DNA from: a virus
Taxonomy: Duplodnaviria; Heunggongvirae; Uroviricota; Caudoviricetes
DNA: 9,233 bases
Reading direction: 5' to 3' (one strand)
IMG/VR virus record: IMGVR_UViG_2630968558_000007
Coordinates: 1-9,233 of that record
Position numbers and translations under genes: made by a program. Under the pieces are notes generated by a model. It was given only the letters and a program-made list of their open reading frames with translations, made no database searches and was not told the origin of the DNA. Shown in pieces: positions 2,353-7,829 of this stretch (position 1 is its first letter; each line of letters opens with the position of its first letter).

Positions 2353-2688
2353 TTATTGATTCTTTTTGCACGGAAATGTTTTTCCTACTGCTAGGGCGGT
2401 TAGTATAACTGCATTCTCATTTCTTGATTCTGGGTTTTTGTTTAGATATTTCTCAACGATATCGGTGTATTGATACATGTCAACGCCATCAGGAGGACAT
2501 AGAGAACCAATTAGTATCAATGAGTCAGTTACTCCGCGCAAATATCCAGTAATGTAAAGCGATGAAAAATCATCACCATTTTTACCTTGTTGAATGTTGT
2601 AAAGAAGGTCATTACCCGTTTGAAGCTCGCGCAGCTCAGCACTGGAAGAAGAGACAACTGCTAACAGGAACAGTGATAGAAATCTCAT
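2353..2688 (-). CDS. hypothetical secreted protein (predicted Sec signal peptide), translationally coupled to mnt
   Basis: 111-aa ORF. N-terminus MRFLSLFLLAVVSSSSA|EL is a signal peptide. Two Cys in the mature part (SLCPPDG, FPCKK). Its ATG overlaps the mnt stop in an ATGA arrangement (plus-strand tcat at 2685-2688). Confidence 0.55.
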   Translation of the reverse strand: MRFLSLFLLAVVSSSSAELRELQTGNDLLYNIQQGKNGDDFSSLYITGYLRGVTDSLILIGSLCPPDGVDMYQYTDIVEKYLNKNPESRNENAVILTALAVGKTFPCKKNQ

Positions 2689-2939
2689 TTCAAATCCTTT
2701 TCATAAATCTTTTTAAGTGTCTCAAACACTATAGCCTTGAACTGCTCGGCCTGCTGATCAGCCAAGCGTTCAGCTTCGTCGCGATATCCTGTAATCGGTG
2801 ATGGTTTTGATAGTGCATCCTGAACGATTTGTAATAACTCAGAGTTCATTGACCTTCCGTTAGCCTCGGCTCTTAATTTCAATTTTTCTCTTACTTCCAA
2901 AGGCATACGGAAGTTAAAGTGCGGATCATCTCTAGCCAT
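2685..2939 (-). CDS. mnt: Mnt repressor (ribbon-helix-helix maintenance repressor of immI)
   Basis: 84-aa product MARDDPHFNFRMPLEVREKLKLRAEANGRSMNSELLQIVQDALSKPSPITGY… is near-identical to P22 Mnt as I recall it. SD GGAGTGA upstream on the minus strand. Divergent from arc across the Pant/Pmnt region. Confidence 0.9.
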   Translation of the reverse strand: MARDDPHFNFRMPLEVREKLKLRAEANGRSMNSELLQIVQDALSKPSPITGYRDEAERLADQQAEQFKAIVFETLKKIYEKDLK

Positions 2940-2961: not shown

Positions 2962-2990
2962 TTGACATGATAGAAGCACTCTACTATATT
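2962..2990 (+). promoter_or_regulatory. Pant-like sigma70 promoter driving arc-ant (-35 TTGACA 2962-2967, 17-bp spacer, -10 TATATT 2985-2990)
   Basis: Consensus -35 and near-consensus -10 hexamers with a 17-bp spacer, directly upstream of arc. The Arc operator lies between the hexamers, as in P22 Pant. Confidence 0.7.
2967..2987. promoter_or_regulatory. Arc operator (ATGATAGAAGCACTCTACTAT)
   Basis: 21-bp sequence with TAGA/TCTA half-sites, matching the P22 arc operator from memory; sits in the Pant spacer. Confidence 0.8.
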
Positions 2991-2995
2991 CTCAA
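2967..2995 (-). promoter_or_regulatory. Pmnt-like promoter on the minus strand (-35 TTGAGA from 2995-2990, 17-bp spacer, -10 TATCAT from 2972-2967)
   Basis: Hexamers read on the minus strand with a 17-bp spacer, upstream of the mnt start; overlaps the Arc operator and abuts the Mnt operator. Hexamer assignment is by inspection only. Confidence 0.45.
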
Positions 2996-3015
2996 TAGGT
3001 CCACCGTGGACCTAT
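2995..3015. promoter_or_regulatory. Mnt operator (perfect palindrome ATAGGTCCACCGTGGACCTAT; 17-bp core 2997-3013)
   Basis: Perfect 21-bp inverted repeat. The 17-bp core is the reverse complement of the P22 Omnt sequence AGGTCCACGGTGGACCT as I recall it. It overlaps the predicted Pant start site. Confidence 0.8.
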
Positions 3016-3029
3016 ATTGTGAGGTGAAC

Positions 3030-3191
3030 ATGAAAGGAATGAGCAAAATGCCGCAGTTCAATTTGCGGTGGCCTAAAGAAGTATTGGATTTGGTACGCAA
3101 GGTGGCGGAAGAGAATGGTCGGTCTGTTAATTCTGAGATTTATCAGCGAGTAATGGAAAGCTTTAAGAAGGAAGGGCGCATTGGTGCGTAA
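3030..3191 (+). CDS. arc: Arc repressor (ribbon-helix-helix)
   Basis: Internal ATG at 3030 gives the 53-aa product [53 protein letters not shown], essentially P22 Arc. SD GAGGTG at 3021-3026. The 74-aa track ORF from 2967 runs back across the promoter and operators and is an over-extension. Confidence 0.9.
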
Positions 3192-3259
3192 AGTTGAAGC
3201 CCCAACTGCTGGAACAGTCAGGGCTTCGGTATCAACAAAACTTACGAGGTATTATTGAT

Positions 3260-4150
3260 ATGTCAAGCTTAGCAAAGTCAACTGTAAATTGCACTAATAG
3301 CATCATCATTTCTGACGTCAAGATTCATATGGATTCAGAGGGGCGTTACTCGCTTAATGACCTTCATGTAGCGTCTGGGAAGGAGGAAAAACATCAGCCA
3401 GCTTTCTTCATGCGTAGAAATGAAACTATTGAATTGATTAATGAAATTTTTAATTCTGCGGATATGCAGAATAAGAATCCCGTCCTTTCTAAGAAAGGTC
3501 GATATGGTGGAACCTACGTGTGCAAGGAGCTTGTTTACTCCTACGCCATGTGGATTAGTGCATCCTTTGCGCTGAAGGTTATCCGTGCATATGACGCAAT
3601 GGTTACTGCCACACAAGATAGGAAGGCTATTGGAGGTAAAACTTCAGTAGCTGAACGCACACCGCTACGAGATGCAGTAAACATGCTGGTAGGAAAGAAA
3701 GGACTTCGCTATGACGATGCATACAATATGGTTCATCAGCGTTTTGGTATTGACAGCATTGATGAACTTTCAATTGAACAAATCCCGCAAGCTGTAGAGT
3801 ACATCCACAGGGTGGTGCTTGAAGGTGAGTTCATCGGCAAACAAGAGAGGAAAGTCAACGAGCTTTCTGCAAAAGAAGCAAACAGCCTTGTATGGTTATG
3901 GGATTATGCCAACCGCTCACAGGCATTATTCCGCAAACTGTATCCGGCGCTGAAACAAATTCAATCGAACTATTCCGGCAGATGCTACGACTATGGTCAT
4001 GAGTTCTCGTATGTTATCGGAATGGCAAGAGACGTTTTAATAAACCACACACGAGATGTTGATATCAATGAGCCAGACGGACCAACGAATCTTTCCGCAT
4101 GGATGAGACTTAAGAATAAAGAATTACCTCCTTCAGTACATAACTACTGA
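3260..4150 (+). CDS. ant: antirepressor-like protein with N-terminal KilA-N domain (Ant position of immI)
   Basis: Position after arc as in P22. KilA-N-type motifs [13 protein letters not shown] and [25 protein letters not shown]. Preferred start is ATG 3260 (SD GAGGT at 3246-3250), giving 297 aa; the track ORF begins at TTG 3194, 2 nt after the arc stop and with no SD. Confidence 0.65.
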
Positions 4151-4169
4151 CAGATAACCAACGCAACGA

Positions 4170-4192
4170 CCCAGCTTCGGCTGGGTTTTTTT
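4170..4192 (+). terminator. Rho-independent terminator after ant (stem CCCAGC / GCTGGG, loop TTCG, then a 7-T run)
   Basis: Perfect 6-bp GC-rich stem at 4170-4175 and 4180-4185 with a 4-nt loop, followed directly by T7 at 4186-4192, about 20 nt after the ant stop. Confidence 0.7.
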
Positions 4193-4250: not shown

Positions 4251-6173
4251 ATGACAGACATTACAGCCAATGTGATTGTATCGATGCCTTCGCAACTCTT
4301 CACTATGGCACGTTCTTTTAAAGCCGTAGCCAATGGCAAAATTTATATAGGAAAAATTGACACTGACCCGGTAAATCCTGAAAACCAGATTCAGGTTTAT
4401 GTGGAGAATGAGGATGGTTCTCACGTTCCTGTTTCACAACCAATCATCATTAACGCTGCTGGATATCCGGTATATAACGGACAGATTGCCAAGTTCGTAA
4501 CTGTGCAAGGCCACTCTATGGCTGTTTATGATGCATATGGTGCGCAGCAGTTCTATTTTCCTAATGTGCTGAAGTACGACCCGGATCAGTTAAGGCAGCA
4601 GATTGAAGACCCTGATGGGGCAACCAAATATCCCGCATTGCAGATTTCTCGCTGGCGTGATGATTTAGACGTGCGTGGATGGGGAGTATTCCCGGATGGT
4701 ACAGATGTTACTGCTAAACTGTGTGAGGCATTGGATTATGCTAACGGTGATTATTCACAATTAGTTGAGTATGGGAAAAACAGAAAATCATTGCATATCC
4801 CTCCAGGCGATTATGTCGTTGATATGACCAAGCTGACTGGCATTCATGCTTCTGCTGGTCGCTTTGTGATCCGCTGTAACGTTGATTGTGTTGGCCGAAT
4901 CCCTAACGGGGATTTCCTAATCCTTCATAGTAAATCTATAAATGTAACTGGCCTTTCATGTAAATCGTTATACATTAGAGGGCTACAGTTTTCTATTATC
5001 TCGAACATTGATACGACCGGCGATATAAGATTTTTTTCATCAGACGCATACACTCTGCCTGGGTTGGTTGTATGGGGTGGCGGGAGTTATTGGAATCATT
5101 TTGTACGCATCAAAACAGGTACTGCGGCAGGTGGTGGCAGATTCATAATTGACATCTCTGATGGATCTATAAATCAAAATACATTTGAGCAGCTTTGCGG
5201 TGGTGGTCTGATCATAACTGGATCAGGTTTTAGTCGCCAGACCGGTGCTCCGTATGAGGGGAACGCAAACACATTTATAGGTCTTGACACATCGGGAAGC
5301 GGCGATTATTTGCTCTATAACAATAGCACCCCAAATCAGCATAATGTTGTGATAGGTTTGTATGGCGAGGTTACGGGCAATGGGAAAATACGTGGGCCGT
5401 GGACCATACTTGGCGCGCGTGCGCAATTTGGGGGCTGGGCCTCAACCATGAGCCCCATGAATACCATATTAGGGACAGACCCTACAGCAGGCTCACAGGG
5501 AGGAGAGACGTTCAGTGTCTCCGGTTCTAATCTTTGCCCTTCTGGAGATTGGTCGGTTATTGAAGGAGTCTACGGAGCACCGATTGACTTTTCCCTTTTA
5601 ACTATACCGAACGAACGAAAGGTTGGTTCTGACCCTAATGAACCATCTGGCTGCGGTAGATGGTTTGGAGTCACTAACGCATCTCAACGTTGCAGAATAA
5701 CCCTAAATTTAACTAAAACACAGTCAGGTTTCATTCGTGGAGCTTTTTACTTTAAAGGCGACACACCGCTTGAGATAGCTATAGAAGCTCAAGATGGTAC
5801 TAATACCATCTATATGCCAGTTAATATGTTCTACGATATGGGTGTTGGAGGGTGGAAGTTATACAAAGTTTCAGCGCCAACCAACGACAAAAGTAAAGCA
5901 TACAGATTAAGGATTACAGTTGAATCCGGAATGAGCGCTTATGTTGGAGGAGCGTATTTTAGCCAGTATAACGGAACCTTTCTTCCAGTATTCTGCGGAT
6001 GGGAGAAAGTAAAAATGAGATCTAGCGTAAAGCCTACTGTGACAGAGAACACAGGTTCTTTCCCAATCGGCTTGGTGTCCTACAGAACATCTCCAGCAAC
6101 ATATCCTTCCGACCCTACTGTCCAATGGGTGTGGAATGGAAGTACATGGGGGATTGTGAATATTTCTGCCTAA
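4251..6173 (+). CDS. tailspike protein (P22 gp9 / Sf6-type head-binding domain fused to a divergent receptor-binding domain)
   Basis: First ~113 aa ([50 protein letters not shown]…NVLKYDPDQ) are near-identical to the Sf6/HK620/P22 tailspike head-binding domain as recalled. The remaining ~525 aa are Gly/Ser/Thr/Asn-rich and consistent with a beta-helix receptor-binding domain. SD GGAG at 4239-4242. Confidence 0.9.
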
Positions 6174-6209: not shown

Positions 6210-7307
6210 TTATCTTGGAATATTTTTCTCGATATATTTATAGCTTAGTAGTGCAAAAGCTACAGATGTTATAAATACAATAAAAATAAACGAGAAGCTT
6301 TTTGATAAATCAGCCATCCCAAGCCAATCTATCATCTTAAAGCATAATATAAACGTAATTGGATGAACTAAATACAAAGAGTATGAAGCATCACCAATCA
6401 TGATGAAAATACGTGGTATTTTGATGTTGTCTTGTATGTAGTCAGAGCATGCAGTAAAGCATGCAAACATTATGCAAAAATATTTCCCTGAATGAAAAAT
6501 CCCATGCCCAGCATCAAACTGTGTTATGTAAGCCCATACAGGGATTATGATTCCAATCGAAATTAATGGTATTGCAATCCTTTTGTCTCTAATTGAAAAG
6601 TTACCACTTTTGTATAGGATAGCAATAATCGCACCGAAGACAAACTCCCAAATCAGGCTTTGCATGGTTAAATTTATATATCCTAAACCTTCAATTTTTG
6701 GTCTGTCGAATACACCCGCAATAGATGGCAAAGCTAACAGTGTAATGAAAAACCATAATATATAAAATGTATACCTAAACTTCCCCAGCGCTATTCCAAT
6801 GGCGCAAACTAAATAAAAATATATTTCATAATTGAGGGTCCATCCAACGAACAATGATGGAGGCCCAAAGTATATAGGTGACTCAGTGTTTAGTGGAATG
6901 AAAAGCAAACCTTTGATTATGTTTGTTAATTCAAATGAGCTAGATGATTGGTTATATGAAAACCCATGCATTAAAGATAAATCAACATTTTTAACAATGA
7001 CTATATATGCAATAGTCATGATGAAATATAGAGGCCAAACTCTTAAGAAACGTTTTTTAATAAACTTTATCAAATCATTGCTTTGGTAGCTATGAGACGT
7101 ATAAATTATGATAAAACCACTAATGATGAAAAATAAATCAACTCCGAATGCACCAGGCCAAAATAATCGCTGAGCCAGCCATTCATATTCTGTTCCTTTC
7201 AAAAAATCCCTTGCATGGCAAAGTACGACAAGCATAGCTGCAATAGCCCTAAGCGCCTGTATATACTGAAGGTTATTCTTTCTTGGTGGACTGTTATCGA
7301 TTTCCAA
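6210..7307 (-). CDS. acyltransferase-3 family integral membrane protein (O-antigen acetyltransferase, Oac-like serotype-conversion candidate)
   Basis: 365-aa polytopic hydrophobic protein with acyltransferase-3 signatures: N-terminal LRAIAAMLVVLCH, FGVDLFFIISGF, C-terminal SYSLYLVHP. Sits between tailspike and integrase where Sf6 carries oac. Visibly AT-rich. Apparent TTG start at 7307 with AGGTG 4 nt upstream. Confidence 0.8.
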   Translation of the reverse strand: MEIDNSPPRKNNLQYIQALRAIAAMLVVLCHARDFLKGTEYEWLAQRLFWPGAFGVDLFFIISGFIIIYTSHSYQSNDLIKFIKKRFLRVWPLYFIMTIAYIVIVKNVDLSLMHGFSYNQSSSSFELTNIIKGLLFIPLNTESPIYFGPPSLFVGWTLNYEIYFYLVCAIGIALGKFRYTFYILWFFITLLALPSIAGVFDRPKIEGLGYINLTMQSLIWEFVFGAIIAILYKSGNFSIRDKRIAIPLISIGIIIPVWAYITQFDAGHGIFHSGKYFCIMFACFTACSDYIQDNIKIPRIFIMIGDASYSLYLVHPITFILCFKMIDWLGMADLSKSFSFIFIVFITSVAFALLSYKYIEKNIPR

Positions 7308-7405: not shown

Positions 7406-7425
7406 TACTGTATTAATATACAGTA
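7406..7425. promoter_or_regulatory. LexA (SOS) box TACTGTATTAATATACAGTA
   Basis: Perfect 20-bp palindrome fitting the E. coli LexA consensus CTGT-N8-ACAG; 17 nt upstream of the umuD'-like start codon, with SD GGAGGTGA at 7432-7439. Confidence 0.8.
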
Positions 7426-7442
7426 TCCATCGGAGGTGAGTT

Positions 7443-7829
7443 ATGGGATTCCCGAGTCCAGCACAAGACTACGTTGAAGAGCGCATATCGCTCGACAAGT
7501 GCATCATAAGCAGGCCAGCGGCAACGTACTTCATGCGAGCGGGTGCGACGCACTACCGGGAAGGTATCCTGAATGGCGCGCTGCTGGTTGTGGATGCTTC
7601 GCTATCACCATGCGACGGCTCATTACTTGTTTGCAGAATGGAAGGTGAGCTGAGGATTAAGCGATACCGCAAATCACCCAAGGTTCACCTGGAAGATTTG
7701 CAGACAGGAAGAAGGGAGGCTATACCTCTGCACGATGACGGAACGAGCCCTGATGCGATATTTGGCGTAATCACCTACATCATCAACGATGCGCGGACGG
7801 GTGAGTTTGATGATTGCCCGGTGATGTGA
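7443..7829 (+). CDS. UmuD'-like protein (S24 LexA/UmuD-family C-terminal domain, N-terminally pre-truncated, predicted non-catalytic)
   Basis: 128 aa. MGFPSPAQDYVEERISLD…ATYF… aligns with E. coli UmuD from Gly25 onward (UmuD: C|GFPSPAADYVEQRIDLN…SATYF). The UmuD GDSM catalytic-Ser motif is replaced by ATHY; the Lys-containing region is retained (ELRIKRY vs EFTVKKL). Strong SD, LexA box upstream, no umuC-like gene in the window. Confidence 0.8.
   Translation: MGFPSPAQDYVEERISLDKCIISRPAATYFMRAGATHYREGILNGALLVVDASLSPCDGSLLVCRMEGELRIKRYRKSPKVHLEDLQTGRREAIPLHDDGTSPDAIFGVITYIINDARTGEFDDCPVM

Follow-up and report, generated by a model that had tools for sequence, protein, structure and literature searches.

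The hairpin between arc and ant in this DNA is most probably (at about 0.92) the 3' stem-loop and intrinsic terminator of sar, the antisense RNA of the immI region (mnt-arc-sar-ant), in a P22-like prophage. The window, meaning the whole stretch of 9,233 nucleotides that was analyzed, gave a single Rfam match when scanned throughout, namely the sar family (RF00262) on the minus strand from 3258 to 3192. This match reaches 66.3 bits, where the gathering score is 43 (E 2.3e-12), and runs the full length of the model, positions 1-68 of 68; no tRNA was found in the window. The inverted repeat GAAGCCC (3196-3202) and GGGCTTC (3221-3227) is the outer half of the 3' 14-bp helix of the RF00262 model, which scores 97.8 bits in P22, 72.4 in Kapi1 and 61.7 in Emek. 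Model score, location, two-stem-loop architecture and genetic context all agree with sar. An earlier note on this DNA had offered two readings of the repeat, a sar-like antisense RNA with the hairpin as its terminator end or an attenuator, and the RF00262 match, the annotated positions in P22 and the true arc-ant context bear out the first. A possible identity as sar was thereby already raised; what went unnoticed is that the 5' half of sar and the N-terminus of Ant are of a different allele from those of P22. The element is already known in kind, being an unannotated allelic form of the classical P22 sar, real but ordinary.

The arc-ant setting that had been presumed for the repeat is real, and both Pfam and comparison with P22 identify a genuine immI region with mnt, arc and ant. 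The arc gene (3030..3191, plus strand) encodes 53 aa with the Pfam Arc domain (E 9.8e-31), 52 of 53 residues (98%) being identical to P22 Arc. The mnt repressor gene lies at 2685..2939 on the minus strand and carries the Pfam domains Arc and Repressor_Mnt. A promoter scan places the divergent Pant (plus strand, 2962-2990) and Pmnt (minus strand, 2995-2967), with the arc and mnt operators, at 2962..2995, in a region homologous to the annotated P22 features at 97% DNA identity. A perfect 10/10 palindrome at 2995-3015, ATAGGTCCAC/GTGGACCTAT, corresponds to the annotated mnt operator of P22 (1252-1274 of the stored P22 locus, L001). Downstream, ant (3260..4150, plus strand) encodes a chimeric antirepressor with an N-terminal KilA-N and a C-terminal P22_AR_C domain; this protein shares 84% identity with P22 Ant over its C-terminal 170 aa and is unrelated to it in the N-terminal half. 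An intrinsic terminator follows ant at 4168..4187 on the plus strand, with an 8-bp stem and then TTTTTTT.

The two arms of the repeat were found in the window sequence exactly where the earlier note had placed them, and they lie as described, past the arc stop codon (TAA, 3189-3191) and ahead of the ant ribosome-binding site (GAGG, 3246-3249; ATG at 3260). However, the seven base pairs reported make up no more than the outer portion of a hairpin that continues inward, and the extent given was too short. A repeat search of the window finds arms of 13 nt, 3196-3208 and 3215-3227, which are 85% complementary. As minus-strand RNA, this segment (3196..3227) folds into GAAGCCCUGACUGU-UCCA-GCAGUUGGGGCUUC, a hairpin in which 14 continuous base pairs, G·U at three positions, close a 4-nt loop; it is assigned as stem-loop II of sar, the terminator hairpin, from its fold, its pairing across the family and the annotated P22 terminator. 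The pairing reaches 14 bp on the minus strand because two C·A/A·C mismatches of the plus strand and the closing pair there turn into G·U. As plus-strand RNA, the three G·U positions are C·A or A·C mismatches, and 7 + 4 pairs surround an internal loop. The hairpin alone is accordingly predicted at -22.0 kcal/mol as minus-strand RNA and -16.0 kcal/mol as plus-strand RNA.

Folding both strands across 3185-3290 likewise predicts the structure that had been proposed, and predicts it strongly on the minus strand. More specifically, the minus-strand fold reaches -33.1 kcal/mol with a z-score of -4.74, and none of 200 dinucleotide shuffles is as good; the plus-strand fold has a z-score of -1.94, and 6 of 200 shuffles are as good. 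A 7-bp repeat by itself is common in the window, where 56 inverted pairs of at least 7 nt lie no more than 40 nt apart. It is the minus-strand z-score, together with the Rfam match and the conservation described below, that raises the hairpin above chance.

Comparison with P22 (NC_002371.2) locates the complete RNA. The annotated minus-strand sar RNA, its terminator and its promoter in P22 map to window positions 3190-3259, 3190-3227 and 3266-3294, in line with the earlier statement that P22 encodes the sar terminator end in this interval. The complete sar RNA predicted here, from the RF00262 match and the fold of the whole RNA, is of about 68-70 nt and occupies 3190..3259 on the minus strand. 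It would be fully complementary to the arc-ant intercistronic region and would span the ant Shine-Dalgarno sequence GAGG at 3246-3249. As in P22, the predicted RNA is antisense to the gap between arc and ant, ends in the arc stop codon, starts one base before the ant ATG, consists of two stem-loops and has its promoter place inside ant. The predicted length of about 70 nt is close to that of P22 sar, which PMC7968456 and PMC3134472 describe as an RNA of about 69 nt (68-69 nt) that pairs with the ant ribosome-binding site. Folded whole (3259 to 3190, 70 nt), the window RNA gives two stem-loops at -29.2 kcal/mol against -29.5 kcal/mol for P22 sar, whereas the mRNA-sense complements of the two reach only -20.3 and -21.0 kcal/mol. 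In P22, sar has been seen in small-RNA sequencing of infection (PMC13397905), and it belongs to the variable "ant moron" of P22-like phages (PMC2629481).

The likeness to P22 is nevertheless unevenly distributed. Over 3190-3230 there are two base differences only, both in the hairpin loop, and stem and tail are identical. By contrast, the N-terminal domain of the window Ant is KilA-N where that of P22 is P22_AR_N, the predicted -10 of Psar is TAAGCT where P22 has TATACT, and the host is E. coli here and Salmonella for P22. The downstream half is instead that of Salmonella phage vB_SemP_Emek (NC_018275), whose sequence agrees with that of the window at every base but one, in the loop, from 3196 through at least 3310. 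The window-type 5' domain, Psar and KilA-N ant are common to Emek and many E. coli prophages. Emek differs on the upstream side of the hairpin, having an extra orf73, no arc stop codon and the tail ACUGUU, and sar is unannotated in its record.

The predicted 3' end of sar is the tail AACUUU (3190..3195, minus strand), since both the sar misc_RNA and the terminator annotated in P22 end at the homologous base (L001 1451). This tail overlaps the arc stop codon (3189-3191), which constrains it, and its sequence is identical in P22. The absence of a clean U-tract on either strand had been noted as a reason for doubt, and it stands as an observation: there are 3 U in the first 8 bases past the stem on the minus strand (AACUUUAC) and 1 on the plus strand. 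The terminator scan that was used needs 5 in 8 and did not flag the hairpin. The doubt is resolved by P22, whose annotated sar terminator has an identical stem and tail. The minus-strand stem itself, GC-rich, of 14 bp and at -22 kcal/mol, is of the kind that an intrinsic terminator requires, and the 69-nt length of P22 sar given in PMC3134472 is consistent with release a few bases past the stem. Termination at this site in the window is likely by analogy with P22.

The repeat is conserved in relatives. It occurs in 65 phage records and in no fewer than 97 viral contigs, and among 5426 complete E. coli genomes 235 hold some match to window 3186-3300, with at least 80% of that stretch in 53. Viral contigs were scanned for the pattern GAAGCCC-N18-GGGCTTCGG, which occurs at no fewer than 120 loci. 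Of the 129 pattern matches listed, about 32 were excluded as unrelated GC-rich hairpins, and 97 hairpins were kept, the window's included, each with a Shine-Dalgarno sequence and an ATG 25-45 nt downstream. An alignment of 35 distinct sequences from these listed relatives shows the 14-bp helix paired in 98.4% of cells, a figure in which the outer 7 bp are fixed by the search pattern, so that their invariance is no evidence and the inner 7 pairs alone are informative. Compensatory double changes occur at 3 of these 7 inner pairs, in 13 cells among the 35 relatives. None of 500 shuffles reaches the observed paired fraction or the covariation score, and when the partner columns are slid against each other pairing falls to 36-51%.

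The wobble positions are revealing of the strand on which this structure acts. They are kept as UG in 32 of 35 relatives, GU in 25 of 35 and UG in 34 of 35, and nearly every hairpin variant among the listed relatives is more stable in the sar sense. Wobbles maintained across the family keep the plus strand mismatched, which is the signature expected of selection on a minus-strand RNA. The alternative that the hairpin serves the plus strand, as an attenuator or terminator of the arc-ant transcript or as an element of its stability or processing, setting the ratio of arc to ant without any antisense RNA, is therefore highly improbable. In its favor, the plus-strand RNA still forms an interrupted hairpin of -16 kcal/mol directly after the arc stop codon, and the ant moron of P22 is thought to influence the amount of late transcription that reaches the tailspike gene (PMC2629481). 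Yet this hairpin is interrupted by a 2x2 internal loop in which C·A and A·C are mismatched, its tail GGUAUCAACAAAAC offers a single U among the first eight bases, and no terminator-like site was picked up by the terminator scan on the plus strand at the arc-ant hairpin. Moreover, the family-wide mismatch at the G·U positions is the opposite of what selection for a plus-strand structure would leave. The attenuator option on the rightward arc-ant transcript is accordingly rejected, on the folds and the terminator scan, although a minor role as a 3' stabilizer of the processed mRNA is conceivable.

Taking the hairpin as the sar terminator, the asymmetry between strands acquires a possible meaning. 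PLate also drives transcription of both arc and ant (PMC12111858), and it may be inferred that the hairpin terminates leftward transcription of sar while rightward transcription, from Pant and from the late promoter, passes through it. Its three G·U pairs would make it strong in the sar direction only, and it is proposed that the weaker, mismatched plus-strand hairpin, being without a U-tail, does not terminate rightward transcription into ant and the tailspike gene. A terminator made one-directional by G·U pairs is, in this inferred form, one addition that the comparative set makes to what is known of sar.

The 5' domain of the predicted RNA (3228..3259, minus strand), delimited by the RF00262 match and by separate folding of the modules, forms stem-loop I. 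It has an 8-bp stem, AUCAAUAA/UUGUUGAU, with an anti-Shine-Dalgarno CCUC (3249..3246) in its loop, and is followed by an ACC linker. Its target on the plus strand, defined by sequence and by the ORF and its domains, is the segment 3246..3262, comprising the ant Shine-Dalgarno GAGG (3246-3249), the spacer and the ATG (3260-3262), of which sar covers everything up to 3259. The 5' domain is 32 nt long in both the window (AUCAAUAAUACCUCGUAAGUUUUGUUGAUACC) and P22 (GUUGGUUUUUCUCCAAGGAUUUACUGACAACC), different in sequence but the same in architecture. All 16 types of 5' domain among the listed relatives fold into a stem-loop with the anti-Shine-Dalgarno in the loop, and all 16 are more stable in the sar sense, with means of -6.75 kcal/mol against -3.03 kcal/mol. 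Because stem-loop I falls out of register across module types in the MAFFT alignment, the conservation of this stem is judged from separate folds of each module.

The predicted promoter, Psar, lies inside ant codons 3-12 (3266..3294, minus strand) and was found by positional homology to the P22 annotation, where Psar occupies L001 1527-1555. It consists of a -35 GTGCAA (3294..3289), a 17-bp spacer ending in TGC (3274..3272) and a -10 TAAGCT (3271..3266), followed by TGACAT and then the predicted start, A 3259. The P22 promoter has GTGTTA, a 17-bp spacer and TATACT, with TGC forming an extended -10, and its annotation places it 6 nt before the RNA begins. A TGC-TAnnnT extended -10 located 6 nt before the predicted start recurs at the same position in most module types of the listed relatives. 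The window -10 keeps T-12, A-11, T-7 and the TG extension, but is still the poorest match of the family, TAAGCT and GTGCAA each agreeing with the consensus at 3 of 6 positions, and a simple promoter scan flagged no minus-strand promoter in 3260-3300. For these two reasons promoter activity is best regarded as presumptive, by analogy with P22. The promoter is the weakest link of the sar model, and the output of sar from the window allele could be low or absent. In P22, transcription from Pant interferes with Psar, which is given here as background and not as evidence. Another candidate minus-strand promoter, TTGACT (3281..3276) with TATCAA (3260..3255), was set aside because its spacer is 15 bp, its -10 is without the final T, and a transcript begun from it would lack the conserved 5' arm of stem-loop I.

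On the model of P22, the element may work as follows. A leftward Psar within the first ant codons would initiate the RNA near 3259, the base just ahead of the ant ATG. The resulting transcript of about 70 nt would present the anti-Shine-Dalgarno CCUC on its 5' stem-loop and then form the 14-bp GC-rich hairpin (3227..3196), after which RNA polymerase would release it in the AACUUU tail overlapping the arc stop codon. Being perfectly complementary, sar would then pair across the ant ribosome-binding site of the arc-ant mRNA, whether that mRNA came from Pant or from late-operon read-through, and would block the synthesis of Ant.

The hairpin also marks a boundary between regions of different history, which is a second addition of the comparative set. 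In a BLAST search against phage genomes, 2940-3230 is 97.3% identical to P22 and to many Lederbergviruses. The match to P22 breaks off at 3230, three bases beyond the hairpin, and that to Emek sets in at 3196 and extends into ant. The shared 35-bp block, 3196-3230, is flanked in the 97 listed loci by 27 upstream and 16 downstream module types in 43 combinations, which places the hairpin at a mosaic junction. Within this block the loop apex (3210-3212, plus-strand TGG) is hypervariable, with 9 triplets on an invariant stem, and the presence of GGG, GGT, TGG and TGT together implies recurrent G/T changes there. Where contexts are near-identical, variation is seen at 8 of 18 loop sites and at 42 of 1087 other sites (Fisher p = 3e-7, a rough value, as the sequences are non-independent). 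The 3-nt apex varies about 20 times more often than neighboring sites.

These observations lend themselves to a tentative reading, put forward as a possibility and rather less likely than its converse, that the block 3196-3230 is a linker at which immI regions exchange antirepressor cassettes by homologous recombination, and that the loop apex is hypermutable or is diversifying as a determinant of sar-ant specificity. Each exchanged cassette could carry a matched sar 5' domain, Psar and ant N-terminal type between very different phages. The apex, for its part, could determine the specificity of sar-ant pairing between co-resident phages.

A rival explanation would have the block be a conserved recombination linker between immI modules and nothing more, without RNA function here, with sar a relic left by decay of the window-type Psar. 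The 35-bp block is indeed the exact segment common to otherwise unrelated flanks, and the -10 of the window is the weakest in the family. However, the window-type 5' domain keeps its 8-bp stem, the anti-Shine-Dalgarno in its loop and TGn-TAnnnT at the right distance, and the module recurs without change in several phages as well as 53 complete E. coli genomes, which points to purifying selection. A pure linker with a dead sar is scarcely credible, since stem, anti-Shine-Dalgarno and promoter layout are kept in many independent genomes, and the roles of recombination junction and terminator are in any case mutually compatible. The reading of the region as coding for an N-terminal extension of Ant has a negligible chance of being right, for although a frame in phase with ant is open from TTG 3194 in the ORF list and the annotations of Kapi1_065 and SPN3UB gp21 begin at the equivalent upstream position, an in-frame stop lies between hairpin and ATG in 33 of the 97 listed relatives, P22 among them (TAA in the loop), a good Shine-Dalgarno GAGG stands 10 nt before ATG 3260, the Pfam domains begin past that ATG, and variation in the hairpin tracks base-pairing and not codon position.

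The importance of identifying this hairpin as the end of sar is mainly one of annotation, in that a sar allele is matched here to a KilA-N-type antirepressor. The RNA is unannotated in the records of Emek, Kapi1 and SPN3UB and under the E. coli RefSeq matches that were listed. In Kapi1_065 (L003 1205-2149) and SPN3UB gp21 (L124 1189-1911) the annotated ant gene runs through the sar hairpin (the equivalent of window 3194-3259), and the in-frame stops in the 33 of 97 listed relatives indicate that these upstream starts are probably wrong. Recognition of sar allows ant start codons to be corrected and completes the regulatory map of the second immunity region.

Control of an antirepressor by a small RNA has a counterpart in the c4 RNA of P1 and P7 (immI, icd-ant), likewise a small phage RNA of a second immunity region that blocks antirepressor synthesis at the ribosome-binding region. 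The c4 RNA is released by processing from the transcript of its own target and works in trans through short complementary boxes, whereas sar is a convergent, fully complementary cis-antisense RNA; to our knowledge there is no sequence relationship between the two. The OOP RNA of lambda, of 77 nt (PMC3134472), resembles sar in being a short convergent transcript with a 5' pairing domain and a terminator hairpin that represses a regulator of the lysis-lysogeny decision. Unlike sar, it pairs with the 3' end of cII mRNA, its inhibition is RNase III-dependent and involves no occlusion of a ribosome-binding site, and it is unrelated to sar in sequence and locus.

Cassettes resembling sar precede antirepressor genes of at least five domain types (P22_AR_N, KilA-N, Bro-N, ORF6N and Rha/ANT), some of them below the Rfam threshold. 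Six divergent examples were observed, at L012 1135-1202, L021 1392-1454, L063 1194-1260, L098 3396-3468, L116 6757-6819 and L064 987-1049, with coordinates on the forward strand of the ant-like gene, which is the reverse complement of the stored locus except for L063. All six share the same outer stem, a covarying inner stem and a 5' stem-loop with an anti-Shine-Dalgarno, and in most of them the opening codons of the gene that follows contain a -10-like hexamer; none of the six reaches the RF00262 gathering score. The genes downstream are of the P22_AR_N (L012 and L064), ORF6N, Rha+ANT and Bro-N types, and that of L021 is without a Pfam match.

Several neighboring genes of the window may also be recorded. 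Beside mnt, in the ant moron, the minus strand carries two small genes with signal-peptide-like N-termini (1948-2688), one encoding a Rap1a-family immunity protein (2353-2688, Pfam E 1.2e-14), a type of protein that gives protection from type VI secretion effectors, and the other without a Pfam match (1948-2337). The tailspike gene (4251-6173) encodes a P22-type head-binding domain (residues 1-113), the remainder of the protein being without a Pfam match. On the strand opposite the tailspike, an Acyl_transf_3 gene (6210-7307) is likely an O-antigen acetylase and lysogenic conversion gene. Between this acyltransferase gene and the integrase gene lies an ORF (7443-7829) for a 128-aa Peptidase_S24 (UmuD-like) protein, preceded by 17 bp by a LexA-box-like palindrome at 7407-7426, TACTGTATTAATATACAGTA (CTGT-N8-ACAG). 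The palindrome and the position of the gene suggest an SOS-controlled cargo gene at the end of the prophage.
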